A DNA stretch of 64,000 nt, from the NCBI GenBank assembly GCA_016223105.1, contig JACRPR010000083.1, forward strand, positions 32,724 to 96,723, given 5' to 3'. Below are positions 7,378 through 24,528 of this stretch, piece after piece. The notes under the pieces were generated by a model. That model saw only the letters and a program-made list of their open reading frames with translations, was not told where the DNA came from and made no database searches. The position numbers were made by a program, and so were the translations under genes. The DNA is from Chloroflexota bacterium (GTDB lineage Bacteria; Chloroflexota; Anaerolineae; UBA4142). Position 1 is the first letter of the stretch, and every line of letters starts with the position of its first letter.

Positions 7378-7875
7378 TTAGATTTGCTCGACGCGAATTC
7401 TAGCGACCACGCGCAGAACTTCCGCAATCGGCACGAGTTTGCCGACGGTCGTGTACCGCGCGTCGCCGACCGGCGTGGTCGTCGCGCGTTCTTGGAACCG
7501 ATCACAGTTTTGCAAAAACCATTCGCGCGTTTCACGCACCGGCAAAATGTACAGCGTGCGCGGCGCGACGAAATAGTAAAACAACCAATCGGCTTGCGTG
7601 TACAGAAAACAGCCCGGCGTGTTGCGTTCGCGATTGCTCGCCGTCTCAAAGAAAAAGTTGCCGGTGCGATGATACCGATCCGCTTTGATTTCGATCTGGC
7701 GCGCGCCCTCGCGCGTGACCCAGATCAGATCAACATCCATTTTTTGATAACGCGGATCGGCTTCGACGTTTTCGACGCGAATCGTTTCCGCGCGATTCGT
7801 GAGCCACGCGATTATTTCGCGCGTCGCGTTGGCGGCGACGGCGTTCGTCGCGTCCATCGTGTACGCGCGCGGCAT
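7378..7875 (-). CDS. Hypothetical protein with a possible PD-(D/E)XK-like motif
   Basis: The ATG at 7873-7875 overlaps the TGA of the upstream gene (ATGA coupling). DVDLIWV...QIEIKAD resembles a nuclease-fold D..(D/E)xK signature, but this is weak. Confidence 0.45.
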   Translation of the reverse strand: MPRAYTMDATNAVAANATREIIAWLTNRAETIRVENVEADPRYQKMDVDLIWVTREGARQIEIKADRYHRTGNFFFETASNRERNTPGCFLYTQADWLFYYFVAPRTLYILPVRETREWFLQNCDRFQERATTTPVGDARYTTVGKLVPIAEVLRVVARIRVEQI

Positions 7876-10754
7876 CACGCGACTCCGCGCGCGGCAACGC
7901 GCGTTTTGTAGATGTACCCTAACGCAACCAACGCGAGCGCGATCAACAACCATTCGTGCGGTTCCGGCACCGCGGTTACATCGAGCGCGTTTTGTCCAAG
8001 CGTCTCGCCCACCTGTTCCACTTCGCGATCAAAGCGATCACCCTGTTGCTCAAGTTGTTTCAACAATTGGAGTTGTTGCGCGTTAACCAGGACGAGCATC
8101 GAAGAGAATGGCGTTACGATGCTGTGCTTGATCGCGATCGCGTGCAATTGATCGAGCGTCGTCAGCTGGCGCAGGTTGGCGCGATTGCGATACATCGCGT
8201 CGAGGATCACGCGGCGCGCGGCGAACGGCGCGAAATCATCATTCGTGATCGCACTTGACGATTTCACCCCGGAGGACGCGCCGGTGATCGTGAACCACGC
8301 GTAACCGTCCACCCAATCCACCGTCGCGTTTGCCGGGATGTCGCTCGACGCGATCGCTTTCGCGTTCAACGCGACCGCGACGCGATTGAGCGCGTCCTCG
8401 ACACTCGTCGTTACGCCGCCGCCACTCGCTTGAATCGCTTCGAGCGTCGCGTCATCGTAACCGAGCGGCAACGCGCCGCCGAGATGAATCATCCACACCG
8501 GCGCGTTCGGAATCGGCACCTTGACCGGACTCTCGCCGAGTTCGTAACCCGATCCATCGGTTACGACAAAAATCGCGTCGTACGAATCGTTCGCGCGCAA
8601 CGCGTCGAATTGCGCGAGCAGTTCGCCCGCGTGTTGTCCGCCGAGATATTCGATCCGATCCAGGTTGAGCGCATCCAACTTTGCGCGCGATGCTGGCTCG
8701 CCGCGATACTGGGACGCGGTGAGATACACATCCGCGTTGGCGAATTGGTCAAGTCGCGCCACAGTTGTCTTTACATCCGCCGCGAATTTTTGCATACTGA
8801 GCGAACGATCCAACACGACCGCGACGCGCAGATTGTCGCGCAACGCGGGCAGATTCAGCGCGGACAATGGACGCGCGATCACGGTTTCGCCGGTCACAAA
8901 TTCGATCTGATGCGCGACCTGGGTCGGCGGCGAGGTCGCGGGGATAGACGCGGGCAACCACGCGTCGGTTTGCAGTGCTTTGCCATTGAGGACGCGCGTC
9001 GTCGTCGCGTCCCAGTACACATTCCGTTTTTCCGCGAGACGCGGCAATGCCCACGCGTTATCGCGCGCCAGAACGCGATAGGTCAGCCACATGTGCATTC
9101 GCGCGGCGTCGGTGATCGTCGAGCGAAACGCGTTGGGATCGCGTCGAAACAAACGCGGCTCAATCGGAAAAATTCGCAGACGATATTGGCGCGGTCCGAT
9201 TTGCTCGACGAGCGCGGGGTCCACATTGCGGCGCACTTCGTTGCGATACACGGCTTGCGCCGCGCCGCGCGGCGCGACACGATACGCAAAGCGCGCGTTG
9301 CGATCATCGCTCGCGCCGAGCCACACGCCGGTAACGACCGCGGATTCCGGCAGTGAAAAATAGTACACCACTTCCTGGCGTTGCGTCGTTTGATTTTGAT
9401 AGACCTCATGCAATTCAACGTCCGCCCAATCACCGCGCTCGCTGATCGTGATCGCTTGATGCGTCAACAAAATTTCGTGATCATCCACCGCTTGCAGAGC
9501 GGCTTCGGCTTGCGATGCCGACCAGGTCGCGCGCACCGTGTTCGCGATGATTGTGCGCTCGCCGTCGAGGATGCGTTCATCGAACACGGCTTTGTACATT
9601 TTCGCGGCTTGCTCCGGTTCCTGACGTAACGCGCGACCATCTTCGCGATTGTCCGGCTTGGCAGGATTGATCGGTTCGTACAACAACGGACTTGCAACGG
9701 TTTCGTACAACGCTTGCACTTGGAGCGCGTCTGCGAGCGATAATTTCATTGACCACTTGTACATTTCGCCGATGTGTTTCACTTCACCGACCGCGCTGAT
9801 GTACCGGAATTGCGCGAGGTACGTGTTGAGCAATCCCGCGCGCAACGTGTCCGCTTGGCGCATCAGCGCGCGCCCGGCGTCCAATGTCGCGGGCGGAGTT
9901 TGCAAACGCGCGAACGCCTCGCGTTGCGGTTGTTGATTCGCGATGATGACCGCCGTAATCGAAATGAGTATCACCGACGCGACGAGCGCGTACGCGGGCA
10001 CTGCGCGCGTGCGATTGATCAACGCGCGCACGCCGCGCCACCACGCGCGCATCGCGAGAATCGGTACGGCGATTGGAGTGATCGCGAGCAATGTCGCGCT
10101 GTAACCGAACAAGAGACCGCTCAAAATCGAAAATGGCACTGCCCAGGTCAACGTCCAGAGCGCGCGCCAATCGAACGTCGTGATGAATCGCCAGAACGCG
10201 TTCGGCAATTCGATCACCACATTCACGATTTGCGCGGCGAGCGGCACCGCGTAAAACGCGATCCACGCGGAAGCGTACAAATAGGTGAGCAGGAGAAACG
10301 TCAAACCAATCGCGCGCGCCATCGCGAACGGCGCGCCGCGCTCATCAATTTTCGGATCGAGCAGTTGCCACATTAGCGTCGCCATTCCGATCAGCGCGAG
10401 CGTCATAATCAGCGCGACCGCCGGGTTTGCATCGCGAAACAAAAAGAAGCGCAAGCCGAGCATAAACATTAGGGGCCACTCGATGCCGTACGCGAGCGCG
10501 AATAATTTTTCCGGCGCGCGGCGCAGTGGAAAGATCGCGAGAAGGATCGCGGCGACCGGGATCAGCGTCAACGTGATGCCGGCTACGAGAAAGAGCGGCG
10601 GGACGATGTTCGTGGTAACGCCGGCGATCAAATCGGGAAGCATTTGCGGCGCGAATCCCAGGAGCATAAACGCGACAAAGATGAGATTCCACGTCCAGAA
10701 CAATCCGTACGCCCACACGCGCGGATCGAAAATAAATCGCAATACTTGTTTCAT
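7875..10754 (-). CDS. PEP-CTERM integral membrane protein with VIT-like and vWA domains
   Basis: The N-terminal ~340 aa are polytopic. A VIT-like segment follows (VVYYFSLPESAVVTGVWLG...DPALVEQIGPRQYRLRIFPIEP), then a vWA MIDAS motif (VAVVLDRSLSM). The C-terminus reads VPEPHEWLLIALALVALGYIYKTR, i.e. PEP + TM + basic. Confidence 0.75.
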   Translation of the reverse strand: MKQVLRFIFDPRVWAYGLFWTWNLIFVAFMLLGFAPQMLPDLIAGVTTNIVPPLFLVAGITLTLIPVAAILLAIFPLRRAPEKLFALAYGIEWPLMFMLGLRFFLFRDANPAVALIMTLALIGMATLMWQLLDPKIDERGAPFAMARAIGLTFLLLTYLYASAWIAFYAVPLAAQIVNVVIELPNAFWRFITTFDWRALWTLTWAVPFSILSGLLFGYSATLLAITPIAVPILAMRAWWRGVRALINRTRAVPAYALVASVILISITAVIIANQQPQREAFARLQTPPATLDAGRALMRQADTLRAGLLNTYLAQFRYISAVGEVKHIGEMYKWSMKLSLADALQVQALYETVASPLLYEPINPAKPDNREDGRALRQEPEQAAKMYKAVFDERILDGERTIIANTVRATWSASQAEAALQAVDDHEILLTHQAITISERGDWADVELHEVYQNQTTQRQEVVYYFSLPESAVVTGVWLGASDDRNARFAYRVAPRGAAQAVYRNEVRRNVDPALVEQIGPRQYRLRIFPIEPRLFRRDPNAFRSTITDAARMHMWLTYRVLARDNAWALPRLAEKRNVYWDATTTRVLNGKALQTDAWLPASIPATSPPTQVAHQIEFVTGETVIARPLSALNLPALRDNLRVAVVLDRSLSMQKFAADVKTTVARLDQFANADVYLTASQYRGEPASRAKLDALNLDRIEYLGGQHAGELLAQFDALRANDSYDAIFVVTDGSGYELGESPVKVPIPNAPVWMIHLGGALPLGYDDATLEAIQASGGGVTTSVEDALNRVAVALNAKAIASSDIPANATVDWVDGYAWFTITGASSGVKSSSAITNDDFAPFAARRVILDAMYRNRANLRQLTTLDQLHAIAIKHSIVTPFSSMLVLVNAQQLQLLKQLEQQGDRFDREVEQVGETLGQNALDVTAVPEPHEWLLIALALVALGYIYKTRVAARGVA

Positions 10755-10771
10755 CGTGCCTCCTTTGCACT

Positions 10772-10865
10772 GTCATTGCGAGGAGCATCGTGAGCGGAGT
10801 CGAACGATACGACGAAGCAATCTCCGATCTGAAAGTGGGGATTGCTTCGCTTTGCTCGCAATGAC
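10772..10865. repeat. MITE-like palindromic element (GTCATTGCGAG...CTCGCAATGAC family)
   Basis: The terminal inverted repeats are gtcattgcgag / ctcgcaatgac, with an internal gaagcaatc...gattgcttc pair. It sits between the exosortase stop and the start of its target gene. Confidence 0.8.
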
Positions 10866-10867
10866 AT

Positions 10868-12370
10868 TCATTTTTTGTTCAGATTGCGCGCAACCGCATC
10901 GCGCACCGCGCGGAAAAATGTTTGCAGTTCCAGCGTGTTCGGATCGCGCGCGTCGTTGAACAAAATCGAAACCAAGACCCAGCGTTTGGGCTGGAGCGTT
11001 ACATCATCCCAAATGCGCGTGCCGTAATCATCGGTTACGCGCTCCGCCGATTGAAACCAGTACGCCGCCGACCAGGTTTGTTGTTTGCGCGCATCGCCGA
11101 GCGCGACGCGAAGAACAGAAAAATCGGGCGCGACGAGAAAGGCGCGCGAGTCATTGATCGCGAGCCCGTACACTTCAAAGCATCGTTCGGGGCGATGATG
11201 CGCGCGCCAGGTCGCGCTCGTAACGAGAATCATCGAGCCGGACAGATCGCGCCAGGTGAAACGAAAGCGGTCGGCGCCTTCAGCATTATCGCGCATCAAC
11301 CAACGCAGTTCGTCCGGCTTGAGCGGCGCGGACTGCGCGATGATGTCGGCGGGAAACGTCCACGCAATTGTCGCCTGCGTCAACCCGGTTTGCGGGCGCG
11401 GCGTGTAGAGTAAACCCATCCCGAAAATTGCAACTATGAGAATCGCGCCAAGCCATGCGGAGTTGGAATTGAGATTGGAGATTGGAGCTTCGAGATTGAG
11501 CGATTGCGTCGGCAAGAGTCGCAACAACGCGACGGCGGCGGCGCACGCGATCACAAATCCCAAGACGCCGAGCGGAACGTGAATCATTTCCGCCGCGAGC
11601 CGCGCGTTCAACACTTGCCCGACGACGACCAGGATCGCGACGCGCGCGAGGTTCGTGATGAAAAGTAAAAGCGCAAACGCGATTGCGATCACGCACCAGC
11701 GCGCGTTGAGTGGTCGTCGTTCGATCCAGGTCGCGGCGATCAGAAACAGCGCGCCCGTCCACAAACTTTTGACGCCACTGCACGGCAGATCAATTTGCGA
11801 CACGCCATTTTCGAGAATCAAAATCGTGTCCACGCCAATCGAACCGATGCCCGCGAGCGCGAGCCCATCGCGCACGATGGACGCGGTGAGGATCCGCATG
11901 GGATAGCCGATGAACGTTTGCATATGTTCGCCGAACGGCAGAACGCCGACGATCAACAGTGCGGCGGGCAAACCCGCGCGCCAACGTTGCGGCGCGATCC
12001 ACAAACCGAGCAAGCCATAACTCGCGAGAAAAAAGATACTCGCGGAAATTGTGTTGATGTCGAGCCAGCGTTCGACGATGAGATACAAAATCGAACCGGC
12101 AAAAACCAGGATGAGCGCGGAGAGATGCCATCGAGGAAGCGCGTCGAATTTAAGCGACCATTTTTCTTTGCGCGCTTGCAACGCGATCAGAACGATCACG
12201 CCGACGAGGACGATTTGATTCGTGCGAAAATCTTCGTACGTGAAAATGATCGCGAGATAGGCGAACACGGCGCGATACAACCACAGCCACAATGCGAGGA
12301 TGAGCGCGTTCGCGGTGATGTGAGTTGCGCGAATCGAATTGGTTGGTGCGGAAGTTTCAAGCATTGCCAT
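10868..12370 (-). CDS. Exosortase fused to a C-terminal EpsI-like domain
   Basis: The polytopic N-terminal part carries an exosortase-type Cys motif (DLPCSGVKSLW). The C-terminal ~170 aa carry an EpsI-like HRPERCFEVYG motif. Confidence 0.75.
   Translation of the reverse strand: MAMLETSAPTNSIRATHITANALILALWLWLYRAVFAYLAIIFTYEDFRTNQIVLVGVIVLIALQARKEKWSLKFDALPRWHLSALILVFAGSILYLIVERWLDINTISASIFFLASYGLLGLWIAPQRWRAGLPAALLIVGVLPFGEHMQTFIGYPMRILTASIVRDGLALAGIGSIGVDTILILENGVSQIDLPCSGVKSLWTGALFLIAATWIERRPLNARWCVIAIAFALLLFITNLARVAILVVVGQVLNARLAAEMIHVPLGVLGFVIACAAAVALLRLLPTQSLNLEAPISNLNSNSAWLGAILIVAIFGMGLLYTPRPQTGLTQATIAWTFPADIIAQSAPLKPDELRWLMRDNAEGADRFRFTWRDLSGSMILVTSATWRAHHRPERCFEVYGLAINDSRAFLVAPDFSVLRVALGDARKQQTWSAAYWFQSAERVTDDYGTRIWDDVTLQPKRWVLVSILFNDARDPNTLELQTFFRAVRDAVARNLNKK
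11459..11500. repeat. AGATTGG-type heptamer run lying inside the exosortase CDS (linker)
   Basis: The run ggagttggaattgagattggagattggagcttcgagattgag is translated on the minus strand as LNLEAPISNLNSNS, between the exosortase and EpsI-like parts. Confidence 0.7.
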
Positions 12371-12491: not shown

Positions 12492-12812
12492 TTACATCGC
12501 GTTGAATGTTTCGTACACAGTAATTTTTGCGCCGCCCAGAAAAACCGGGCAACTTTTGGCGAATTCAATCGCCGCGTTGAGCGAATCGGCTTTGATGACC
12601 GAGTATCCAGTTGCCATCGTGCCGACCGGACCGTCACTGACTTTGCCCTCTGCTGTGATGGTCTTGGCAGTTTGCGTAAACGGATTGCCTCCATCCACCA
12701 AATTGCTACCCAGTTTGCCCATCCACGCGCCCCAGTCTTGCATCACTTTATCTTTTTCCGCTTGGTTCGCGGGCATTCCACCACCGCTATAGAGTAACAC
12801 AAAATTTGCCAT
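12492..12812 (-). CDS. YCII-related (DGPF) domain protein
   Basis: MANFVLLYSGGG...GGNPF...GYSVIKADSLNAAIEFAKSCP. I chose the ATG at 12812 because it has a GGAGAA RBS. The listed 28-codon upstream extension is unsupported. Confidence 0.7.
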   Translation of the reverse strand: MANFVLLYSGGGMPANQAEKDKVMQDWGAWMGKLGSNLVDGGNPFTQTAKTITAEGKVSDGPVGTMATGYSVIKADSLNAAIEFAKSCPVFLGGAKITVYETFNAM

Positions 12813-13026
12813 CGTTTGTTCTCCTTCCAAAGTTTCTTGGAGTTGAGAAATCTTGACGCGCTCAAGAATCTGATCCAAGTGAATTGAGCATATCACAAAA
12901 GTTTCAATTTTGTATTAGAGCCAACCCTGCCAAGTATCAATTCTTTATTTGAAAATTCGCGTTGGTTTCGACACGAAAAGTTGTGCGGAAAAAAAGACGG
13001 CAGTCAACTTAATGACTGCCGTTGGA

Positions 13027-13040
13027 TGTGTCGGGGCGAG
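13027..13040. repeat. Degenerate third copy of the tRNA-Pro att core
   Basis: tgtg--tcggggcgag compares with the att core tgtgagtcggggcgag. It lies at the left edge of the low-G+C tract. Confidence 0.3.
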
Positions 13041-13149
13041 CTGATCTGGATTTGATAGTTTGCTGATCATGGTTTGTGAGATATTGAGTTAGCTCCAGTT
13101 GGGACAAATGGACTTGAAGATACCTCACTGGTATTCCTCGATCAAGCAT

Positions 13150-14076
13150 TTAGAAAGGGACGTCTTCGTCGATTTTGGAAGGTTGGGGTGGGGCAAATTC
13201 AATATTGATCCGAAATCGGTAATCATGGTATCGCGTTGGAGTATGCAGTCGCAATCGATACTGCAAGCCGCCATCAAACCAGCCTTCTTGAAATTCAAAA
13301 TGGATCTTGGCAAACTCAACAGCACTAGGAGGGAGACTGGGGACTTTGATTTCCAACCGATACTGTCTCACCAAACCATCTTCCGCATCAATTGCACTTG
13401 CCTTGAAGGATTCGATATTTCCCATAGGTCCTGAATGTATCGGGATATAAAGCGCATCTTCTGAAGTGAAAAGATACACATGGGTTATTCCACCTGCTAC
13501 TTCCAGGCTATCGTTCCTTATATGAATGGGCAAAACGAACCGTTTCGTCTTTATCGTTCCAGTTATTGTGGGATTTTCCCCTTCGGAGCCGATCTCTGGT
13601 ATCGCTTTCTCTAGGATCGTCACTGACAAGTGTTCGGAGGTTAGTGCCACTTTTCGGGCACGCGATTCTTCAATCGCCCATTGCAAAGTTGTAGCCAGTT
13701 CTTTTCTAAGTGTCTCTATCTTTCCAGCATAAACTGTGTGTTGTCTATGTTTCAGGTCAAATGGAATGTCATCAGCATTCTGCGTCAGAAGGAGAACGAG
13801 TTTTCCCAGCGCGTGAGCGTAACCAACCTCATAGAACACATTGGGATTCCTACCCGTCATATCAGCTACAATAACATCGGCTTTGTTGATCTGATTGAAT
13901 ATTCTGTCTAGTATTCCTTCAGAGAACTTTTGCTCATCTACGCGTTCCGCATATGCTCCAACATCATCCGCTGCGCCTTTGATGCCAAACTGGTAGATGT
14001 CGTTAAACTTAGAGTCAAATGGCATCAGTACGAAAACGATAGGTTTAGGACGAGTAGATTTCGAAATGTCAGCCAT
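13150..14076 (-). CDS. Nucleoside 2-deoxyribosyltransferase-like / TIR-like Rossmannoid domain protein with an unknown beta-rich C-terminal domain
   Basis: The N-terminal part reads IVFVLMPFDSKFNDIY...ADVIVADMTGRNPNVFYEVGYAHALGKLVLLL, i.e. an MPF..., NxNV.YE.G.A.A.GK pattern. The C-terminal ~160 aa have no motif I recognise. The gene is low in G+C. Confidence 0.45.
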   Translation of the reverse strand: MADISKSTRPKPIVFVLMPFDSKFNDIYQFGIKGAADDVGAYAERVDEQKFSEGILDRIFNQINKADVIVADMTGRNPNVFYEVGYAHALGKLVLLLTQNADDIPFDLKHRQHTVYAGKIETLRKELATTLQWAIEESRARKVALTSEHLSVTILEKAIPEIGSEGENPTITGTIKTKRFVLPIHIRNDSLEVAGGITHVYLFTSEDALYIPIHSGPMGNIESFKASAIDAEDGLVRQYRLEIKVPSLPPSAVEFAKIHFEFQEGWFDGGLQYRLRLHTPTRYHDYRFRINIEFAPPQPSKIDEDVPF

Positions 14077-14318: not shown

Positions 14319-14344
14319 TGTGAGTCGGGGCGAGAGGACTTGAA
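14319..14344. repeat. att site (left), a 26-bp direct repeat of the tRNA-Pro 3' end
   Basis: tgtgagtcggggcgagaggacttgaa is identical to 24450-24475. Confidence 0.9.
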
Positions 14345-14426
14345 AAAGGTCTTTTTTTTGGATGACCCATTTTGAACCAGGTCGAGTCAACGGTAAGGAA
14401 TGACATCTGTTTTGGTTGACCTCGTA

Positions 14427-15308
14427 TCATTCACCTGGCATGTTGTCCAAAAACGAAAGTTGCTTGTAGGTTTGTCGGATTCGCTCGAGCGACGTGGACA
14501 CGTAAATCATTGTGGTTGTGATATCTTCGTGACCCAGGAGCGTTTGCAAGTCGTGAATGTTTCCACCACGATCAAGATAGTTTGTTGCGAAGGTGTGCCG
14601 AAGCGCGTGAGTGCTGACATTTACGCCGGCGGTTTTTGCGACACGCTTGATGATTTTGTAGATCGCGGGTGCGTTCATTGGCTTGCCGTGTCGTGATGTG
14701 AATAGGGCTGTTACTCCTGGTTGTGCTCTTCGTTCGTTTATCCACTTTTCAAGTTCCTTGGTTGTCTTCTTCGCGAAAATCACCCATCTCTCTTTATCAC
14801 CCTTTCCGTGTTTGACGTGTGCCATTCCTCGCACAAGGTCTAGGTCATCAATTTCGAGTTGTGCGACTTCTCCGCGTCTCATTCCAGAGTCTAGGATGAG
14901 AAAAATGATTGCGCGATCGCGTGTAGCGGTTTCTGCCGAAATGAGTTTGTGAATTTGGTCGGGTGGTAAGCATTTCGGTAGTTTGTGTGGCTTCTTGGGG
15001 ATAATAAATCCAATGTTGGGATTGTCGGTGACGATTCCTGTTTCGTGAATCCATCGTGCGAAGGTTCTGATCGTCTTGGCTCTCTGCCGTATCGTTGTTG
15101 GCGAGAGTTTTTTTTCGCAATCGCGCAGGTGACTGACATATTCATTCAAGATTTTTGATGTGACGATCTCGATGTTGGTACTGTGATGTTTTTCAAGCCA
15201 TCGAGCGAGTAGTGAAAGTTGGCGTGAGTAGGTTTTGATCGCGTTAGGGTTGCATTCGCGTTTTTCTCGATTGTTCAAAAAGTTTTGAATGACGGCGAAG
15301 ATTTCCAA
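14427..15308 (-). CDS. Tyrosine recombinase / phage integrase
   Basis: Has an N-terminal SAM-like core-binding region. The catalytic motifs are ...DSGMRRGE..., HALRHTFATNYL and LLGHEDITTTMIY. The start is TTG with a GAGGA RBS. Confidence 0.9.
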   Translation of the reverse strand: MEIFAVIQNFLNNREKRECNPNAIKTYSRQLSLLARWLEKHHSTNIEIVTSKILNEYVSHLRDCEKKLSPTTIRQRAKTIRTFARWIHETGIVTDNPNIGFIIPKKPHKLPKCLPPDQIHKLISAETATRDRAIIFLILDSGMRRGEVAQLEIDDLDLVRGMAHVKHGKGDKERWVIFAKKTTKELEKWINERRAQPGVTALFTSRHGKPMNAPAIYKIIKRVAKTAGVNVSTHALRHTFATNYLDRGGNIHDLQTLLGHEDITTTMIYVSTSLERIRQTYKQLSFLDNMPGE

Positions 15309-15374
15309 GTGTGATCCTCGATTGAATGATGGGTGATTGTGCCCACATTATATCAAATTTCTGGAGGTGGTTCG

Positions 15375-15686
15375 ATGCAAGTGTCGGGTTTGATTATGAA
15401 GAGTCGCTCGTCTGCGTACCCAAACAAAAAGACTGGTGAGTTGATCCACATGGTCTATTTTGATTTGTATGACGACACGGCGGGTCTGATTCAGTGTGAA
15501 ATTAAGGCGAATGGCGCGGAGCCGCCGGATGGTTCGAAGGTTGTCGGCGATGTGCAGTTCCTGCGCAAGATCGCGTTTGGTCAAGGTGTGTCGGTCGCGC
15601 TCAAGTCGTTTCGTGTGCTCGATGTCAAATCGGATGCGCCGGGTTGGGTGCCGCCGCTTCCGCCGGGTGTGGGTCCGAAAAAGTAG
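15375..15686 (+). CDS. Hypothetical 103-aa protein (ssDNA-binding protein by position only)
   Basis: ATG with a GGAGGTG RBS. It is the first gene of the plus-strand module and is small, soluble and beta-rich in appearance, with a Pro-rich tail. I recognised no motif. Confidence 0.4.
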   Translation: MQVSGLIMKSRSSAYPNKKTGELIHMVYFDLYDDTAGLIQCEIKANGAEPPDGSKVVGDVQFLRKIAFGQGVSVALKSFRVLDVKSDAPGWVPPLPPGVGPKK

Positions 15687-15689
15687 AAA

Positions 15690-16004
15690 ATGTTTCCAAG
15701 TTCTGTGCTGACCGGGACACTTGTAAGCGCGTTGGGTGATCAATCATCTTTTGCGCTTTACTATACGGTCCCGACGAGCGGTTTGCTTGCGGCAACGTTG
15801 GGTATGTTGCTCATTCTCACGTTGTTCATTATTGCGAATCGTTTGCAAATGTGGGCAATTCTGTATTCGATTATCTTGGCGATGTTCTTCGTTCCGTTTG
15901 CGACAACGGCGTATGCGCCTTCTGTGGTGGTTATGTGTTTGATCGCGCTGGTTGTTGTCCTGGTTGGTCGGTTCTTCGTCAAGGTGCTGGGCTGGGGGAC
16001 GTGA
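15690..16004 (+). CDS. Small integral membrane protein (3-4 TM)
   Basis: 104 aa, very hydrophobic, tightly packed with its neighbours. Confidence 0.5.
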   Translation: MFPSSVLTGTLVSALGDQSSFALYYTVPTSGLLAATLGMLLILTLFIIANRLQMWAILYSIILAMFFVPFATTAYAPSVVVMCLIALVVVLVGRFFVKVLGWGT

Positions 16005-16159
16005 TGACGCTTCCAAATTGGACGTTTAACGAAGTGATGATTGAAGTCACGAACTTTTTGCAAAATTCGGTTGTGGCTGGTTTGGTGATGACATCGCTTG
16101 CGTTGTCGGTCGTCAGTTTGCTCGTTTCGACTTTGCAAAACATTTTTCGGCGTCAGTAG
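16004..16159 (+). CDS. Small single-TM protein (51 aa), coat-protein-like layout
   Basis: The ATG overlaps the upstream TGA (GTGATGA). The sequence is MTLPNWTFNEVMIEVTNFLQNSVVAGLVMTSLALSVVSLLVSTLQNIFRRQ: an acidic N-terminus, a hydrophobic core and a basic C-terminus. It is below the ORF-track cutoff as a separate ORF. Confidence 0.45.
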   Translation: MTLPNWTFNEVMIEVTNFLQNSVVAGLVMTSLALSVVSLLVSTLQNIFRRQ

Positions 16160-16213
16160 TTGGCGGGTTCGTGCCGCTTTCTATAAATCTGATATCGAAG
16201 GGAGGTGAGAACA

Positions 16214-16378
16214 ATGTTTGGTACCGGCTTTTCGCTCGGATTCACGATTTCGGATATTCAAACTCAAGTTTCGATGTTGCTCGCGAATGCGGTCGTGCTT
16301 GGTCTGGTCGCTGGTTCGTTGGCGCTGACGATCACTCCACGGATTATCGGTGTTGTGAAGGGCATGTGGCGGCACTAG
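16214..16378 (+). CDS. Small single-TM protein (54 aa), major-coat-protein-like layout
   Basis: Not in the ORF track (<60 aa). It has a strong RBS (GGGAGGTGAGAACA-ATG). The sequence is MFGTGFSLGFTISDIQTQVSMLLANAVVLGLVAGSLALTITPRIIGVVKGMWRH. Confidence 0.5.
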   Translation: MFGTGFSLGFTISDIQTQVSMLLANAVVLGLVAGSLALTITPRIIGVVKGMWRH

Positions 16379-16449
16379 GCGCGATTCGCGCGATTTTCTG
16401 ATTGTCTGGGGGTTCGTTGTTTGAATCCCCAGATTTACGAGGTGTAGAC

Positions 16450-16605
16450 GTGGCGGCTCCCACTCTTCCCAGTTTGTGGACTGATGTTTTGACCCAACTG
16501 AATACGTTCCTGGCTTGGGATGTCGTCAAGGGTTATATCGTGTTATCTCTTGGCATGTCGTTTGGTGCTTTGGCTCTCCGCATGCTGGGTCGCGCGGTTC
16601 GGTAA
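16450..16605 (+). CDS. Small single-TM protein (51 aa), paralog of 16651-16836
   Basis: GTG start with a GAGGTG RBS. It shares the FLAWDVVKGYIVLSLG...RMLGRAVR pattern with the next gene. Confidence 0.45.
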   Translation: MAAPTLPSLWTDVLTQLNTFLAWDVVKGYIVLSLGMSFGALALRMLGRAVR

Positions 16606-16650
16606 TTTGTGGGGCGGTCTTTGATCGCCCTACATTTGTTGAGGTGATAG

Positions 16651-16836
16651 ATGATTCCATTTCAAGGTTTGTTTGGTGCAGGTGCGTTTCAGTGGGAAGC
16701 TGGTTATGGATTATCTGGTGTGTTTAACATGCTTTCCGCTATTTTGGCATGGGATGTTGTGCGTGGTTCGTTGGTTTTTATTCTCACGCTGGCGTTGGTT
16801 GGTCAGGTGATTTCGATGATGCGAGGTGTTAGATGA
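16651..16836 (+). CDS. Small single-TM protein (61 aa), paralog of 16450-16605
   Basis: ATG with a GAGGTG RBS. It contains ILAWDVVRGSLVFILTLALVGQVISMMRGVR. Confidence 0.5.
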   Translation: MIPFQGLFGAGAFQWEAGYGLSGVFNMLSAILAWDVVRGSLVFILTLALVGQVISMMRGVR

Positions 16837-17081
16837 ATTGGAATGCAATGCTGTTTGATCCAACTGTTTTTACTGATCATCTCAAGACCTGGTTTGCCGC
16901 GTTGTTGGGTGTCTATAATGCCGGTGGTAATGGTATGTTGACACCTTATATTTTGTTTTCTATCGCCTTGATGATTGCTGGCTCGATCCTGGTTACATTT
17001 CGTCGAGCAACTTCTGGCAAATCGGATTTGGCTCAACCGCAACAGCAACAGCAAAAACAGAATCAATGGCGAGGTGATTGA
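16833..17081 (+). CDS. Small membrane protein with a Q-rich C-terminus
   Basis: 82 aa. Its start overlaps the upstream stop (ATGA). It has one or two TM segments and a QPQQQQQKQNQ tail. Confidence 0.5.
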   Translation: MNWNAMLFDPTVFTDHLKTWFAALLGVYNAGGNGMLTPYILFSIALMIAGSILVTFRRATSGKSDLAQPQQQQQKQNQWRGD

Positions 17082-18223
17082 TGCGGATCGCACTATTTTC
17101 GTGTCTAGTTTGCCTGGTGCTCGCGGTGGTGTGGTTTGCTGTGCCTGGTGTTGGGGCACAAGGTATTTATCCGTTCAATGGCGAGTTTGATTATGGTTTG
17201 TCTGGTTGGACCACTTACAGTTCTACTCTGACTTCATCTTATTGTTATACGGGGCAGTGCGTATACTTTCCTCAGTTGTATTCTTCATTGTTTTCAAATC
17301 CGTTTATTGTTGGCAATGGTAGTCTTGTTTTGTGGGGTCGTGCTGTTTCATCGACACTCAATGTTCATATTTATGCAATTGATTTTTCAAATTCTGCGTT
17401 GCCTCAATATTACATAACTACTACAGTTTTCAGTTCCTCTGGATTGGTTAAGGCAATTCCTGTTCCGTCGGCGATTGTTGATCACGCGATTCAATTGCTC
17501 TTTGTGATTTATGATTCTTCATCTGGTGCTGGTTCGTTGGATCATATTTATTTGACGTCTGCAATTGGGTATGGTTTTCCCTATGGCGCAAATACTCCAA
17601 TTCCGATCAATTGGTCTGGCTATCCTACTCCTGTCCCTTATCCGACATTTCCTGCATTCCCAACCGCGATTTCAAATGTCAACAACACGACGAATAACAC
17701 GACGAACAACACGACGAACAATAACACGTACGGTGGTATCTCCGGCGCGACGATCAACGTGACTGGTGGTCTCACGTTGAATATGACACCTTTTCCGTAC
17801 GGTGCTGGTACTCCAATGCCGATCTACGATGCGTCCACGCGGACGCCAACGCCTACGCCGGTGTCGCAAGCTCAAGCGGCTCAACGTTTGGCATGGTCGT
17901 CTGCTCCTGGCACTCCTCAATTCTATATTAATCCGTCTTCGCCGGCGTCTGCGGGTGATTTGTCGTTGGGTGCTGGGACAAATTCGGCGAGTCCGTTTGA
18001 CTTGGTGATGACTGAAGAACTTTTGAATTATGATTTCAAGTTTTCTGATTTGGGTTACCCTTACACCACGATCACCTTTGGCTTACCTGATTGGCATTTC
18101 ATTGTTCATTACAAGTATCCGACAAAATTTATTTTTGCGGGTGAAGATTTGTTGAATCAGGTTTATGCGATTATGGGTTTGTTCTACTTCGCGACGTGCT
18201 TGACGGTTATTCGTAAAGGATGA
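17078..18223 (+). CDS. Secreted, C-terminally anchored protein with a low-complexity NNTT linker (pIII/adsorption-protein-like architecture)
   Basis: Signal peptide: MMRIALFSCLVCLVLAVVWFAVPGVGAQG. Linker: NVNNTTNNTTNNTTNNNT. C-terminal hydrophobic anchor: VYAIMGLFYFATCLTVIRKG. Confidence 0.55.
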   Translation: MMRIALFSCLVCLVLAVVWFAVPGVGAQGIYPFNGEFDYGLSGWTTYSSTLTSSYCYTGQCVYFPQLYSSLFSNPFIVGNGSLVLWGRAVSSTLNVHIYAIDFSNSALPQYYITTTVFSSSGLVKAIPVPSAIVDHAIQLLFVIYDSSSGAGSLDHIYLTSAIGYGFPYGANTPIPINWSGYPTPVPYPTFPAFPTAISNVNNTTNNTTNNTTNNNTYGGISGATINVTGGLTLNMTPFPYGAGTPMPIYDASTRTPTPTPVSQAQAAQRLAWSSAPGTPQFYINPSSPASAGDLSLGAGTNSASPFDLVMTEELLNYDFKFSDLGYPYTTITFGLPDWHFIVHYKYPTKFIFAGEDLLNQVYAIMGLFYFATCLTVIRKG

Positions 18224-18227
18224 TTCG

Positions 18228-18365
18228 ATGACTCCTCTCGAGATCACAGTTTACTTTCCTGCTCCGCCGAATGTGTTTTACGCATTTGTCCTTTTGACTT
18301 CGGTGATGACGATTGTCTGGGTTGCCAAATTTGTGATTCGTCTTGTAACCGGCTTTTCCTCATGA
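18228..18365 (+). CDS. Small TM protein (45 aa)
   Basis: Not in the ORF track. The sequence is MTPLEITVYFPAPPNVFYAFVLLTSVMTIVWVAKFVIRLVTGFSS. It lies 5 nt after the upstream stop. Confidence 0.35.
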   Translation: MTPLEITVYFPAPPNVFYAFVLLTSVMTIVWVAKFVIRLVTGFSS

Positions 18366-18481
18366 ACTCGCCCGGCTTTTTCTATTCTAATCTCATAGCA
18401 AGTGGGATTGTTGGTATGTTCTGTTTTCTGATTTGTTTCAATATTGTCGAGGTGATCTCAAACGATGTTCCTCGCCGCTGA
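18362..18481 (+). CDS. Small TM protein (39 aa)
   Basis: Not in the ORF track. The sequence is MNSPGFFYSNLIASGIVGMFCFLICFNIVEVISNDVPRR. It overlaps both neighbours by a few nt. Confidence 0.3.
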   Translation: MNSPGFFYSNLIASGIVGMFCFLICFNIVEVISNDVPRR

Positions 18482-19259
18482 TAAATTTTTCCAAGAGTTG
18501 ATGGGGATTCGATCCTGCGCGCTGACTGGGCATGTTGGTTCTGGAAAAACTCTCGGTGCGATTGCGATTGCGTGTGAGTTACTGCGGCGGCAATTCGTCT
18601 CTGGTGTGTGGGGCAATCTGAATCATTCGTTACCTCATTCTGAATCGCTCGAGCGGTCCTGCATTATTTTGGATGAAGCATCCATTGTGATGGACTCGCG
18701 CTGGTCATCGGTCTGCTTCGATCTCTACGGTTCGTTTGTCCGCAAGTACAAGGGTGTCTATCTTTATCCGTCTGTGCACCAGGTTGACAAGCGCGCGCGC
18801 AATCTCGAAGTGATGCGTTTGGTAGATATTGACACGATTCCTTTTTTGCGAACCTGGGTTTATCGCTGGGAATCTACATCGGGGGCAAAGGGCACTTTTT
18901 TTCTTCTTCGTCCTCAAGAATATTTCGACTATTACGATCACGAATTTGTTCCGACTAGTGACGGTGGGACGCTCGAGGCGTTGTGCTCGATGTATCCTGA
19001 AACGGTCAATGAGATTTTAGAATCTCGGTCGGGTAAACGATTGCAGAGGTTGATGGGTTATGACACTGGATCACGTTCTGGCGGTTCGCGTTCTGTATCT
19101 GGTAGTGTGGTTTCTGGTCTTTCGGAGCGTGTGGAACGACTTGAAGCAGAGTTAGAAAATGTAAGGATGATGGTTTATGGACTCACCGGTAACATTGAGT
19201 CAACGTCTAATGGCGCAAGCCAAGGCGAAGCAACAGCAATTGAGCGATGGCGCGCCTAA
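18465..19259 (+). CDS. P-loop NTPase, Zot / inovirus pI-like assembly ATPase candidate
   Basis: Walker A (LTGHVGSGKT) lies near the N-terminus and Walker B is SCIILDEAS. ATG with a GAGGTG RBS. The position after the pIII-like gene and small TM genes matches inovirus order. The call is by motif and position only. Confidence 0.55.
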   Translation: MFLAADKFFQELMGIRSCALTGHVGSGKTLGAIAIACELLRRQFVSGVWGNLNHSLPHSESLERSCIILDEASIVMDSRWSSVCFDLYGSFVRKYKGVYLYPSVHQVDKRARNLEVMRLVDIDTIPFLRTWVYRWESTSGAKGTFFLLRPQEYFDYYDHEFVPTSDGGTLEALCSMYPETVNEILESRSGKRLQRLMGYDTGSRSGGSRSVSGSVVSGLSERVERLEAELENVRMMVYGLTGNIESTSNGASQGEATAIERWRA

Positions 19260-20052
19260 GCAATTGAAAGAGTACGGTACTGTCAATGATGATTCGGCGA
19301 AAGGTCGCCGATGGCAGATGCTTTTTTTCGTTGTGATTCCGCTGATTTGTGTTTGTATCGCGGTCTGGTTCGGTTTTGGTGGTGGATCCCAAGCCGCGGT
19401 AGATGCCAGTAAGCCAGTAGGTGCTTCAACAATTGCGCCGGCAAATCTCGATTCAATTGTGCAAGGTAGTCAGTTTGCTTTTGCCTCGCCGCCGGCGCAG
19501 AAAGTTGCTCAAGCAGTTACACCCGATTCGCGGATTCGTTGTTATGCGATTCGCGATACGGTTTCGATCTCGAATGTAATTATTTACAAAGAAGGTTTGT
19601 TCTTGGCTGATCGTTGGTCCCGTGTGAACGGTGGTTTGCTTGGTTCGAAGACTGCCGGCTGGTTTCCTGCAACTGATTTTGGGTGCCAAGGTGATCTTAC
19701 TTCTCTCGAAGTTGAATATATGATGCCTGTGCCTTCTCCGACTGCAACAAAGCGTGTGGTTGTGATTGTTCCGACGAAAATACCGACATCATTTCCGACT
19801 GCAACTTTATCGCCGACATTAGCGAATGGAATTCTTCGCCTCGATGCAAGTGGTTGTGATGTGTCCTGGTTGGTCTGGAATGCTCAAGCGGTTTGGATTG
19901 AGTATGCCGGTAAGCGTGAAGGTGTTGCCGGTGATTCTGCTGGCAAGCCGATTTTTCGTTCGATGTGTCCATATACCGGCACAGTCAAGCTTGATGCTTG
20001 GATGAAAGATGGCACGCGTCAAAATCGTTCGGTTTCGCTTGGAGGTCAGTGA
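19177..20052 (+). CDS. Single-pass membrane protein with an extracytoplasmic domain
   Basis: The TM segment is WQMLFFVVIPLICVCIAVWFGFGG. The gene overlaps the 3' end of the ATPase gene by 83 nt in another frame. Confidence 0.5.
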   Translation: MDSPVTLSQRLMAQAKAKQQQLSDGAPKQLKEYGTVNDDSAKGRRWQMLFFVVIPLICVCIAVWFGFGGGSQAAVDASKPVGASTIAPANLDSIVQGSQFAFASPPAQKVAQAVTPDSRIRCYAIRDTVSISNVIIYKEGLFLADRWSRVNGGLLGSKTAGWFPATDFGCQGDLTSLEVEYMMPVPSPTATKRVVVIVPTKIPTSFPTATLSPTLANGILRLDASGCDVSWLVWNAQAVWIEYAGKREGVAGDSAGKPIFRSMCPYTGTVKLDAWMKDGTRQNRSVSLGGQ

Positions 20053-20056
20053 TCGT

Positions 20057-20112
20057 GGGGGCGGCGGTCGGCGGGCGGGGACCCCTCTGGGGTGCCCGAC
20101 GACCGCGCCCCC
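20057..20112 (+). other. GC-rich imperfect hairpin in the intergenic region upstream of rep (packaging signal / origin / terminator candidate)
   Basis: The arms gggggcggcggtcggcgggc...gcccgacgaccgcgccccc enclose a ggggacccctctggggt tip. A second 10-bp-stem hairpin lies at 20156-20188. Confidence 0.5.
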
Positions 20113-20202
20113 TTGGTACTATATGCGAAATTTGCGTCCACTTTGGTCAGTGCTTTTTTCGTGTCTTCGGTCGAGGATGACACGAAAATAGTCTAATCGA
20201 AG

Positions 20203-21282
20203 TTGTGGGGGGGGGTAGTGGATGATCGGCTAAGGCGGGTTCAAAGATGGATTCTCCAAAGTGCCGCTAGAGAGCTGATGCCGAAAGAATTAGTGTTCAA
20301 GTGTTTACGGTGGTGGATTCCGAAATCTGTTTTCATTGATGTGCTCTACTCTGCGCGAGTGCAACGCGCACATTACAAAAATCTGATGGTGTGTGCGTCG
20401 GTCTGGATGTGTCCGATTTGCTCTGCAAAAATCAGTGAGCGTCGGCGAGTAGAGTTGGCCGGGGCGATTGATGCGAATGCGGATGAATTACAAGTTGCGT
20501 TGGTGTCGTTCACTCTGCATCATTCTGCGAAAGATAGTTTGAAAGTCATGTTGAATCGTCTGCTTGAATCGTATCGCGAATTGAAATCGGGGCGAACCTG
20601 GAAAGATTTCTCGCAAGAATCTCTTCTGGTTGGTTCTATTCGTTCGCTTGAAACGACGTACGGCGTGAATGGTTGGCATCCGCATTTGCATGTTCTGATG
20701 TTCTTTTGTAAGGGTGCAAATCTTGATGCTGTTGAGGAGTTTCTTAAAACGCGTTGGCTTTATGTGCTTGATCGTAATGGCGCAACGGCCTCGTATCGTC
20801 GCGGTGTGGACTTTCGGACGGCTGATCGTGATGTTGCAGAATATGTCGCCAAGTTTGGTCACGAGCCGGTGAATCTCAAGCGTCCTGGTAAGTGGACTAT
20901 GGAACACGAATTGACAAAAGGTGTTGCCAAGATCGCGCGTGGTGCAAAAGGAAAATCGCCGACTCAACTGCTTGCTGATTTTGTGGATGGTGATCGAGCA
21001 TCTGCGATGTTGTGGCAAGAGTACGCGCGTGCGTTCAAGGGCAAGCGTCAATTGGTGTGGTCCCGAGGTTTGCGGACTAAACTCGGGTTGGGTTACGAAG
21101 AAACAGATGAAGCGATCGCCAAGCGTGAAGATGAACAAGCGGTTCGATTATTGTCGCTGACGTTGCGACAATGGCGGACCGTGCTCGGTAATGATGCTCG
21201 CGGCGAAGTGTTGGAGATTGCAAGTTCTGGAGATCGTGACCAGGTCTTGGAGTTTCTCGAAAGGATTGGCGCATGCGATTGA
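20203..21282 (+). CDS. Rolling-circle replication initiator, HUH superfamily (pC194/phiX174-like Rep)
   Basis: Motif 1-like is LVSFTLHH. The HUH motif is [13 protein letters not shown]. The Tyr motif is VAEYVAKFG. An N-terminal CPIC zinc-finger-like pair is present. The start is uncertain (TTG 20203 to ATG 20278). Confidence 0.8.
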
Positions 21283-21611
21283 ATGTTGCGGATCGCTTTT
21301 GGGCGAAGGTGACCAGGTCTGCCGATTGTTGGTTGTGGCAATCAGAACGCGACGAAAAGGGCTATGGTCGGTTTCTGTATCTTGGTCGCAAAATGAATGC
21401 ACATCGGGTTGCGTGGTTGGTCACATTCGGCGAGATTAAACCTGGTTTGCAAGTGTGCCACAAGTGCGACAATTCATCGTGTGTAAATCCAGCGCATCTT
21501 TTTCTCGGCACGGTGCAAGACAATTTCAATGATGCGGTCCTTAAGCATCGGCGGTATTCACGATACCTGGTTGGAGTGATGCCAGGTCAAATCAGAATGG
21601 AGGGCTTATGA
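21273..21611 (+). CDS. HNH endonuclease (HNH_3-type)
   Basis: Contains GYGRF...AHRVAW...[24 protein letters not shown]. Confidence 0.75.
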
Positions 21612-21772
21612 AGTGGAGATGAAAAAAATATCGCGGTCGAGTTGGCTACTCGCCGCGACAAATTCCAACGGGTGAGCGTTGGAACTGTGGAGATTATATC
21701 ACGGTTTCATTCGCGCACCAAGTGGCGCGTTTTTTATTTCGTGTTTTCGACGATTCACAATGGAGGTGTGAA

Positions 21773-21991
21773 ATGTCTGTTCGTGTTCTTGATCCGATTG
21801 CGGAATTACGTTGGGTGTGCAAGATTTTGGATATGGTTTGTAATTGTGCTTTTCCGCAGGATCGTGAAGCGCTGAAAGATTTCCAGGTTATTTTGATTCA
21901 AGCGTCCTGGAAAGTTGGCGTGTTGCTTGAGCGTGTTGATAGCGAATTGAACCCGGTTTCCGAGTCTTCGGATGATGAACTCCCGTTCTAG
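21773..21991 (+). CDS. Hypothetical protein (72 aa)
   Basis: ATG with a GGAGGTG RBS and an acidic C-terminus. No motif recognised. Confidence 0.35.
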   Translation: MSVRVLDPIAELRWVCKILDMVCNCAFPQDREALKDFQVILIQASWKVGVLLERVDSELNPVSESSDDELPF

Positions 21992-22041
21992 TCGGCGAGC
22001 GTCTACAGCGTTTCTGCGGGGCAAAACGGTTTTCGAGTCCT

Positions 22042-22686: not shown

Positions 22687-22796
22687 TTCGTCGTCGAGAG
22701 TTGCGATCTTGACGACGAACGTCCAACTTTGCGCGGTGTGGGAGGGGACTCCGATCCGCGCGAAATGATTCTACCACAAATTTAAAAGGGGACAAA

Positions 22797-23024
22797 ATGT
22801 CGAACAAGAAAAAATCACGCAAGGGGTTTGCGAGTGATGCGGTCGTTTACCGTGTGTCTGCAGTTGCTGGTAAACATCGTGTTCGGTGTGTGGAATGTAA
22901 TGCAGTGATTCCGGAGGGACAACCGTTTGAACGTTTTGGGACTCGTGATCCCGATTCTGGCGGTGTTGAATACTGGGTTAACGTGTGCCTGGCATCGGTT
23001 AACAAAGTGCTGGGGAGGGCGTAG
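22797..23024 (+). CDS. Hypothetical small protein
   Basis: 75 aa, with a CVECN motif and an RBS-like AAAGGGGA upstream. Confidence 0.35.
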   Translation: MSNKKKSRKGFASDAVVYRVSAVAGKHRVRCVECNAVIPEGQPFERFGTRDPDSGGVEYWVNVCLASVNKVLGRA

Positions 23025-23025
23025 T

Positions 23026-23250: not shown

Positions 23251-23336
23251 AGTGTTTATCGCCGGCGAATGACACGCTTTAACGTAGATCGGGATGGGTG
23301 TTGTGCCTGTCCCGGTTTTATTTTCTCAATCTCTCT

Positions 23337-23354
23337 TTCTTCTTTTCTTGATTT
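23337..23354 (+). promoter_or_regulatory. Candidate RCR double-strand-origin nick motif (TTCTTCTTTTCTTGATTT)
   Basis: A CTTGAT core (23347-23352) sits in a polypyrimidine tract within the ~400-nt non-coding gap of the element. It resembles the CTTG/ATA nick core of pC194/pUB110/phiX174-type origins (recalled from the literature, not searched). Confidence 0.35.
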
Positions 23355-24449: not shown

Positions 24450-24475
24450 TGTGAGTCGGGGCGAGAGGACTTGAA
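24450..24475. repeat. att site (right), a 26-bp direct repeat overlapping the tRNA-Pro 3' end
   Basis: Identical to 14319-14344. It covers the last 20 nt of the tRNA plus 6 nt downstream. Confidence 0.9.
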
Positions 24476-24528
24476 CCTCCGACCTCAGCGTCCCGAACGC
24501 TGCGCGCTACCAACTGCGCTACGCCCCG
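24456..24528 (-). tRNA. tRNA-Pro (anticodon CGG)
   Basis: Manual cloverleaf, 73 nt: CGGGGCG-TA-GCGC-AGTTGGTA-GCGC-G-CAGCG-TTCGGGA-CGCTG-AGGTC-GGAGG-TTCAAGT-CCTCT-CGCCCCG-A. CCA is not encoded. Confidence 0.9.

Follow-up and report, generated by a model that had tools for sequence, protein, structure and literature searches.

Several described systems bear on the gene analysed here. In Swarozyc a DUF4062 TIR-like NADase joined to an auxiliary domain is activated by the phage portal (bioRxiv 10.64898/2026.05.01.722283), and in retron Ec86 an effector resembling nucleoside 2-deoxyribosyltransferases (NDTs) uses the catalytic residue E106 to deplete adenine derivatives (bioRxiv 10.1101/2023.08.16.553469). 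SpbK, described as a TIR NADase whose interaction partner is the SPbeta protein YonE, is a further precedent alongside SIR2-HerA. We have analysed a window of 64,000 nucleotides (nt) from a Chloroflexota bacterium (contig JACRPR010000083.1, positions 32,724 to 96,723), in which a complete open reading frame (ORF) of 308 amino acids (aa) with an ATG start, on the minus strand at 13150..14076, encodes an NDT/TIR-like head followed by a beta-sandwich tail. We propose, with a probability of about 0.5, that its product is a self-contained, single-polypeptide protein of anti-phage abortive infection or exclusion, and that the gene is the cargo of a decayed islet at tRNA-Pro. The kind of immunity to which it would belong, single-protein depletion of nucleotides or NAD+, is already known; what we rate as new is the recognition module and a possible HerA-coupled subtype, in a family whose function we infer.

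A TIR/NDT-like N-terminus had been proposed for this gene from its peptide strings, in what we call the original prediction, and the sole ORF at these coordinates contains IVFVLMPFDSKFNDIY ... INKADVIVADMTGRNPNVFYEVGYAHALGKLVLLL exactly. On profile and model evidence the head, aa 10-145 (13642..14049, minus), is an NDT/TIR-class Rossmannoid, N-glycosidase-class domain with predicted catalytic activity. The gathering cut-off of Pfam PF05014 is 28.8 bits and the head reaches 31.5, a marginal score from a match that covers aa 44-104, the central half of the domain; the same profile was matched by 88 of 88 diverse relatives at E<=1 (best 5.2e-8). The best PADLOC match was to the CBASS effector model PDLC00733 ('Effector TIR'; 2.9e-11), and a phmmer search of the PDB aligned FYEVGY with the GYELG catalytic motif of DNPH1/Rcl. 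AlphaFold2, run on the whole protein with a 71-sequence alignment, returned a confident two-domain model (mean pLDDT 89.3) in which a five-stranded alpha/beta core at aa 13-115 (b1 13-17, a1 22-38, b2 42-45, a2 55-65, b3 68-72, a3 78-89 with E83, b4 93-98, b5 113-115) precedes a long linker helix at aa 120-145. Foldseek was run with a separate model of the head (pLDDT 82.8), whose PDB neighbours, at TM 0.55-0.67, were NDT 8qc0, DNPH1, 4jen, BcmB, SPARTA TIR-APAZ (0.65-0.67) and the plant RPS4/RRS1 TIR (0.64). Since N-glycosidases and NADase TIRs are equally distant from the head, the fold alone cannot separate NDT from TIR chemistry. Among the BFVD viral models the top structural match was annotated as a CAP12/Pycsar TIR and the third as a 'CMP/hydroxymethyl-CMP hydrolase', with phage NDTs next. 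No Pfam TIR family matched the query at E<=10, PF10137 gave faint matches (E at least 0.013) in 9 of the 88 relatives, and an NCBIfam scan of the protein returned no match. Profile and structure searches alike thus place the head in the fold class first read from its letters.

The conserved acidic residue of the YE.G pattern to which the original prediction had pointed is Glu83 (codon GAG, 13828..13830, minus), the predicted catalytic nucleophile. It is invariant in the 88 relatives, aligns with the Glu of the DNPH1/Rcl GYELG motif and begins helix 3, after strand 3, which is the position of both the NDT/DNPH1 nucleophile and the TIR catalytic Glu. The full invariant set in these relatives, which come from many phyla, comprises Y28, R45, D47, I63, N79-V-F-Y-E83-V-G85, A87, H88, P105, D107 and Y116, all retained by the window protein, and at least 90% of the sequences keep D26, D67, D72, N77 and H113. 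That the catalytic-position Glu and the acidic and aromatic residues around it are invariant argues for catalysis. D47 and D72 stand at places topologically similar to the acidic residues that follow NDT strands 2 and 3; the sugar-binding acidic residues of Lactobacillus leichmannii NDT we take to be D72 and D92. The loop behind strand 1 reads M-P-F-D/E-x-x-F across the family (MPFD in the window protein) and does not resemble the DNPH1/Rcl phosphate-binding loop after strand 1, presumably GSIRGG.

The tail, aa 146-294 (13195..13641, minus), is modelled as an all-beta, Ig-like sandwich with strands between residues 150 and 294, and is proposed as a sensor or regulatory module. It matched nothing in Pfam, NCBIfam or PADLOC, and its structural neighbours in the PDB were generic Ig-like sandwiches only (GH3 FnIII-like, integrin thigh/calf, RhoGDI, AvmM), in keeping with its first description as beta-rich and without a nameable motif. 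BLAST divided the tails into class A, to which that of the window belongs (18 loci), class B (37) and class C (26), and hhalign relates the three as homologous at a probability of 92-95.5%. Relatives with a class A tail are 81% identical to the window protein in the head and 42% in the tail; over the whole sample the figures are 64% and 18%. Across the classes, only N188, L248/P250, R276 and D285 are kept by some two-thirds or more of the sequences, no polar pocket is common to all three, and no nucleotide-binding sensor (SAVED, STING or a cyclic nucleotide-binding domain) was recognizable in the tail by Pfam or structure search. This sparse conservation argues against a family-wide small-molecule pocket or second active site, and fits a module for protein recognition or regulation. 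The idea that the tail binds a small molecule or is catalytic was considered and dropped, since so few residues are kept across the classes.

A profile of the tail run against 1.84 billion cluster representatives found 166 proteins, nearly all with the same architecture or fragments of it. The exceptions were two 50%-identity clusters, each of which joins the tail to an enzyme of another kind. One is P0226 (882 aa), in which residues 719-880 are the tail and the PADLOC PifA model is matched in its entirety ahead of it (4.9e-87, model positions 9-713 of 720). It is encoded at L100 3417-6065, within an integrative conjugative element that also has VirB/TraG type IV secretion genes, a Ymh-family gene and an integrase. 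The other, P0239 (846 aa), is a PD-T4-6-like Ser/Thr kinase that ends in the tail domain. Both tails are of class A (hhalign probability 98%), with the common motifs I-T/S-H-L-Y and H-D-F-x-F-R-L. As the canonical PifA model ends before the tail, the tail is an add-on in P0226. The PifA and PD-T4-6 models describe single-protein phage-exclusion systems, PifA being the KAP NTPase of F-plasmid T7 exclusion, and their enzymatic parts (P-loop NTPase or kinase) are unrelated to the N-glycosidase-class head.

The original prediction had called the gene an orphan, which has to be withdrawn, as there are thousands of full-length homologues and more than 4,200 relatives in many phyla. A word-indexed search of 5.8 billion proteins gave 4,214 matches, including an identical protein from a Chloroflexi metagenome-assembled genome (MAG) (P0001), which NCBI names 'nucleoside 2-deoxyribosyltransferase'. 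Besides this protein, the best 120 of the 4,214 matches share 51-61% identity across 89-99% of the length, are about 285-365 aa long, and come from sources that include Chloroflexota, Nitrospiria, Phycisphaerae, Bdellovibrionota and Helarchaeota. When one genome per species was searched, relatives were found in 277 of 185,579 species of bacteria and archaea, among them Methanosarcina, Methanoperedens, Planctomycetota, Acidobacteriota, Bacteroidota and Proteobacteria, so that the family is rare and patchily distributed and crosses domains. Nearly every member has 270-340 aa, with the head at the N-terminus and the tail second; in phage contigs the head also forms the C-terminal part of other proteins. 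A single 561-aa instance from a Clostridia MAG (L051 7986-9671) fuses the head to a 2H phosphoesterase (DUF1045 / 2'-5' RNA-ligase superfamily), which hints at processing of a ribose-phosphate or ADP-ribose (ADPR)-type product. Our literature searches found no paper describing the two-domain family.

Of the described systems, Swarozyc is similar in its plan: a single gene, an N-terminal TIR/NDT-superfamily Rossmannoid with one essential Glu (predicted to be Glu83 here), a helical stalk and then a C-terminal domain, which in Swarozyc is the auxiliary domain required for function, together with patchy horizontal spread, often near other defence genes. The two differ in that our tail is an all-beta sandwich and not the Swarozyc auxiliary domain, and in that the head belongs with PF05014 by sequence. 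Membership of the DUF4062/Swarozyc group was considered and rejected, PF13271 being unmatched in the query at E<=10 and absent from the 25 families listed, of 40 matched, for the 88 relatives at E<=1. To the NDT/DNPH1(Rcl)/MilB-BcmB group (PF05014, clan Nribosyltransf) the head is linked by its fold, by the (Y/F)-E-x-G Glu at the start of helix 3, perhaps by the acidic residues after strands 2 and 3, and by its best sequence and structure matches. The known enzymes of that group, however, consist of about 120-170 aa, stand alone and work in salvage, sanitation or antibiotic pathways, whereas the protein analysed here is less than 25% identical to them, has 308 aa with an extra beta-sandwich of 160 aa, lacks a DNPH1-type phosphate loop and occurs in a mobile or accessory context.

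Effectors of type II-A retrons (Ec86/Eco1, Sen2 RcaT) likewise have an NDT-like N-lobe with a catalytic Glu and bring about abortive infection by nucleotide depletion; they have a second lobe, act as oligomers, and need a reverse transcriptase and multicopy single-stranded DNA. No retron parts were found near the gene: Rfam identified only tRNA in the window, no reverse transcriptase occurred among the neighbours, and no PADLOC retron-effector model matched. A likeness to CBASS Cap12 and Pycsar PycTIR appears in the best PADLOC model, the faint PF10137 matches and the top BFVD hit. The family differs from these effectors, though, in that its tail has no recognizable nucleotide-sensing domain and no family-wide pocket, and no cyclase (CD-NTase or pyrimidine cyclase) was a conserved neighbour or stood among the 25 most frequent neighbour families listed for each Pfam scan. 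The two-gene layout of SIR2-HerA and DUF4297-HerA recurs in four of 96 relatives' loci, with the difference that the partner is NDT/TIR-like and not SIR2 or DUF4297, and that most members have no HerA.

To compare genomic contexts we took 2,221 ORFs within 4 kb of the gene at 96 loci, called by a simple greedy rule, and clustered them by all-against-all BLAST. The comparison yielded no conserved operon partner. The largest recurring neighbour clusters comprised four loci each, and the HerA gene alone held a fixed adjacent position. A DUF87/HerA ATPase lies on the same strand directly upstream, with a 61-nt gap, at L001 5936-9029, L022 6233-8837 and L023 6179-8831, and upstream with one gene between at L057 399-3654. 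These are the four HerA-linked loci among the 96 with a located family gene; tail classes A and B are both represented, and the linked ATPases match PADLOC HerA models, down to 5e-50. They form a possible two-gene 'HerA + NDT/TIR-like' cassette. The window locus has no adjacent co-directional HerA gene; its neighbours are an integrase and a YCII-like gene. The original prediction had held that homologues embedded in salvage operons would speak against it. Neither the clustering of the 2,221 ORFs nor Pfam scans of 213 neighbouring proteins showed a recurrent nucleotide-salvage neighbour, so that objection falls away.

Other neighbours are a mixture of conflict and mobility genes (type I restriction, GmrSD-HNH, Gabija, TIR_2, PD-T4-6, PDC candidates, HigB-HTH, DUF4145, transposases, integrases and one integrase fragment) and housekeeping genes (gyrA, SHMT, EPSP synthase, lepA and the mraZ cluster). 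Relatives occur in 17 IMG/VR contigs, PHROG families were matched as well (best phrog_3634, 4e-23), and head relatives are carried on 105 plasmids, 49 of which are predicted to be conjugative. Among cultured-phage genomes, 56 records hold distant head relatives (25-35% identity). Two streptococcal prophages, SM1 and Javan37, were inspected, and in both the head relative sits in the lysogeny module, in the orientation of the integrase and repressor and opposite to cro and the antirepressor. In most of the viral loci the gene runs opposite to its neighbours, in the manner of a moron. In 11 of 60 loci there is a tRNA within about 8 kb of the family gene, and in three it is only some 0.2-0.4 kb away (tRNA-Leu in L037 and L038, tRNA-Asn in L058), which recalls the position in the window; tRNA linkage is weak as a trait of the family.

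In the window itself the gene lies in a tract that was rightly described as tRNA-linked. The integration target is a tRNA-Pro (CGG) gene at 24455..24528 on the minus strand (ARAGORN; Rfam 67.7 bits). An exact 26-nt copy of its 3' end at 14319..14344, 100% identical to 24450-24475, is the att site of a prophage and the upper boundary of the islet; the older lower boundary is a degenerate tRNA-Pro 3' fragment at 13025..13050 (18 of 26 positions, with the 11-mer core GTCGGGGCGAG), and a second degenerate att-like fragment at 13093..13118 (17 of 26) contains GGACTTGAA. Over the whole window and both strands, matches of at least 17 of 26 occur only at 13025, 13093 and one other site, 49739. The ORF has a G+C content of 44.7% (42% at third codon positions) compared with 57-59% (67-72%) in the flanking host genes, a deficit of about 13 points that bears out the low G+C first noted. 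The 1.27-kb interval between the repeats has 43.5%, the prophage 48.2% and the chromosome 57.1%. An assembly from an independent read set has the same integrase-gene arrangement.

The gene was described as lying next to a prophage, and does adjoin one that is inovirus-like; it is not inside it but beyond the exact att repeat. That the gene is cargo of this prophage was considered and rejected, as it ends at 14076, outside the exact repeats at 14319-14344 and 24450-24475, and differs in base composition. An older element may have inserted at tRNA-Pro and decayed to a one-gene islet that kept the gene, with the filamentous prophage joining later. The claim that the gene is monocistronic is plausible. 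A 243-nt gap separates the gene from the upstream att site and integrase, and about 130 nt downstream, beyond the degenerate tRNA fragment, a terminator-like hairpin is followed by a T-run (13022-12997, minus), which could be the displaced original tRNA terminator. The ATG is preceded a few bases upstream by the purine-rich GAAAAGG, and a simple scan found no sigma-70-like promoter upstream of the gene.

The HerA pairing, the PifA-like and PD-T4-6-like tails, the integrase, transposase, restriction and toxin-antitoxin neighbours and the carriage by prophages and plasmids together point to a role in defence or conflict. In the mechanism that we propose, the head would be an N-glycosidase with Glu83 as nucleophile, aided by Asp47, Asp72 (at least 90% conserved) and Tyr28/Tyr82. 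Once activated it would cut the base-ribose bond of an abundant essential nucleotide, with NAD+ as the likeliest candidate (nicotinamide-ribose bond) and adenine nucleotides as the alternative (adenine-ribose bond), and the loss of nucleotide would starve the infected cell and the phage with it. The helix at aa 120-145 and the fast-evolving tail would hold the enzyme off until the tail bound an invader-derived protein and turned it on, probably through a changed oligomeric state; the HerA ATPase would be an added partner in the minority of relatives that have it. Catalysis, substrate, trigger, autoinhibition and the defence phenotype are all proposals here, and NAD+ specifically as the substrate is a doubtful assignment. 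The original prediction of a defence or nucleotide-processing effector has thus gained several contextual lines of evidence, while defence itself and the choice of NADase over other N-glycosidase chemistry are still matters of inference.

Several observations weigh against an abortive-infection protein. PADLOC v2 holds no system built on this family, and the HerA, PifA-like and PD-T4-6-like links come from four loci and two protein clusters. Approximately 7-9% of the scanned neighbours match defence models, a raw and only semi-quantitative share, and roughly half of the inspected loci have neither a mobile-element nor a defence neighbour, examples being those between gyrA and a radical-SAM gene, beside mraZ, or amid hypotheticals. 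For an immune effector the conservation of the head is unusually high, which could reflect a conserved metabolic substrate instead, and by sequence and fold NAD+ is indistinguishable from a deoxynucleoside monophosphate (dNMP), a nucleoside monophosphate or ATP as substrate.

The position of the gene in some phages also counts on this side. At L090 6204-8855 and L091 28-1676 a full two-domain member stands between a gpA-type large terminase and a lambda-type portal gene, co-directional and with a 10-nt gap or a 16-nt overlap, and at L083 7977-10336 the family gene is directly upstream of the portal gene. In P2-like prophages, sites close to cos or the portal gene are known as a hotspot for defence genes. 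The tight coupling of the family gene to the terminase in L090 and L091 nevertheless suggests that it is expressed late, in the lytic phase, and to the benefit of the phage itself, and these copies leave room for a protein that serves the phage or mobile element and is expressed by it to manipulate nucleotide or NAD-derived pools. Such a protein might destroy host immune signalling nucleotides, bias dNMP pools for modified DNA or exclude rivals during lytic growth, with the beta-sandwich tethering it to virion or packaging components. The relatives at 17 IMG/VR loci and the PHROG matches accord with this idea, phage NDTs that shift the deoxyadenosine pool have been reported (bioRxiv 10.1101/2025.10.22.683976), and NAD/ADPr-processing domains associated with terminase-portal genes have been listed (Iyer et al., 2022; PMC9503650). 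We nevertheless consider it unlikely. Most copies, that of the window included, are chromosomal singletons without phage genes in the same islet; at most viral loci the moron-like orientation is opposite to that of the neighbours, and in the streptococcal prophages the relative runs with integrase and repressor and not with the lytic genes. Further, the tail is common to PifA-like and PD-T4-6-like exclusion proteins, the HerA pairing resembles host defence operons, and the option of excluding rival elements is in practice the same mechanism as the abortive-infection or exclusion function that we prefer.

A housekeeping or stress enzyme, that is, a nucleotide-sanitizing or salvage N-glycosidase like DNPH1, MilB/BcmB or a true NDT whose tail is an add-on for oligomerization or localization, would account for the Pfam and NCBI names, for DNPH1/Rcl, NDT and BcmB as the closest solved sequences and structures, for the very strong conservation of the head and for the several loci amid housekeeping genes. 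It is made improbable by the occurrence of the family in only 277 of the 185,579 species genomes, scattered over phyla and both prokaryotic domains, by the lack of any conserved salvage or nucleotide-metabolism neighbour in the ORF clustering and Pfam scans, and by the foreign local G+C and att-bounded islet. The tail is also common to Abi-type proteins, and MPFD replaces what we take to be the GSIRGG phosphate loop of DNPH1. More improbable still is that the head is a non-catalytic nucleotide sensor, or that the protein is an addiction-module toxin that stabilizes the islet and has no phage role. The TIR-DrHyd-SLOG class does include inactive ligand-binding members (PMC9503650), and the gene is carried on integrative elements and plasmids; however, the Glu83 position and the acidic and aromatic residues are invariant in 88 sequences, the protein has no other effector domain that a sensor could control, and the neighbourhood comparison showed no conserved small adjacent antitoxin-like gene.

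The neighbouring 10.1-kb element (14319-24475), bounded by the exact 26-nt repeats, looks like an inovirus-like prophage on the basis of its Rep protein and genome organization. It carries a tyrosine integrase at 14427-15308 (minus; Pfam 1.6e-40) and a Rep_1 rolling-circle initiator at 20203-21282 that is 24-36% identical, over about 87% of its length, to the Reps of filamentous phages such as Propionibacterium phage B5/Bifilivirus and Pseudomonas phage PMBT54. The other long ORFs lie on the plus strand, save one minus-strand HNH ORF, and the element is T-rich with a strong positive GC skew. A 264-aa ORF at 18465-19259 with the Walker-A motif GHVGSGKT is placed where a Zot/pI-like assembly ATPase would be expected; a Zot-like label was not supported, as there was no Pfam, phage-genome or IMG/VR match. 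At 15851-16836 lie four tandem small ORFs of about 57-102 aa which, by eye, have a C-terminal hydrophobic helix and a basic end (...NIFRRQ, ...KGMWRH, ...LGRAVR and ...MMRGVR) and were likened to duplicated major-coat proteins of filamentous phages. A 381-aa ORF at 17078-18223, without a Pfam match, has an N-terminus that appears hydrophobic and signal-like by eye and contains a 12-nt tandem repeat encoding NNTT units at 17681-17728; it may be an adsorption or minor-coat-like protein. Two ORFs on different strands, at 21273-21611 and 23659-24054, look like HNH endonucleases by eye, and one contains HHIIPLSRGGTNHPNNLQTLCENCH.

On the other side of the gene, the small YCII-like ORF at 12492-12896 scores 19.3 bits, under the Pfam cut-off, and has an intermediate G+C content of 49% and its own strong terminator-like hairpin at 12464-12432; it may be chromosomal or part of a still older island segment. 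Beyond it, at 7875-12370 on the minus strand, is a host pair made up of a 959-aa multi-pass membrane VIT-domain protein and a 500-aa exosortase of the EpsH family. A VIT/VWA protein also occurs about 5 kb or less upstream of the family gene in one relative's locus (L103, 1-1969), which is probably a coincidence.

Single-protein immune switches that deplete NAD+ or other nucleotides are a growing theme from bacteria to humans, with TIR, SIR2/DSR, Swarozyc and the retron NDT as examples. To these the family would add an NDT-derived effector that keeps 60-80% identity over a range from Chloroflexi to methanogenic archaea, a recognition domain that is new and apparently exchangeable between effector types, and a possible NDT-HerA system. 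The database label 'nucleoside 2-deoxyribosyltransferase' can mask conflict genes of this kind. Being small (about 300 aa), free-standing and abundant in metagenomes, the protein would be cheap to test and, if active, useful for identifying the conserved phage feature that such sensors read. Tentatively, and at somewhat less than even odds, we suggest that these are cross-domain one-protein immune switches in which a beta-sandwich 'sensor cassette' is swapped among three unrelated kinds of killing or signalling machinery, namely an N-glycosidase that is NDT/TIR-like, a KAP NTPase of the PifA type and a kinase of the PD-T4-6 type, with the N-glycosidase also coupled to HerA in parallel with SIR2-HerA. 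If this is true, the cassette would mark out an invader signal common to all three, and the near-invariant head would define a new class of NDT-derived effectors in bacteria and archaea.

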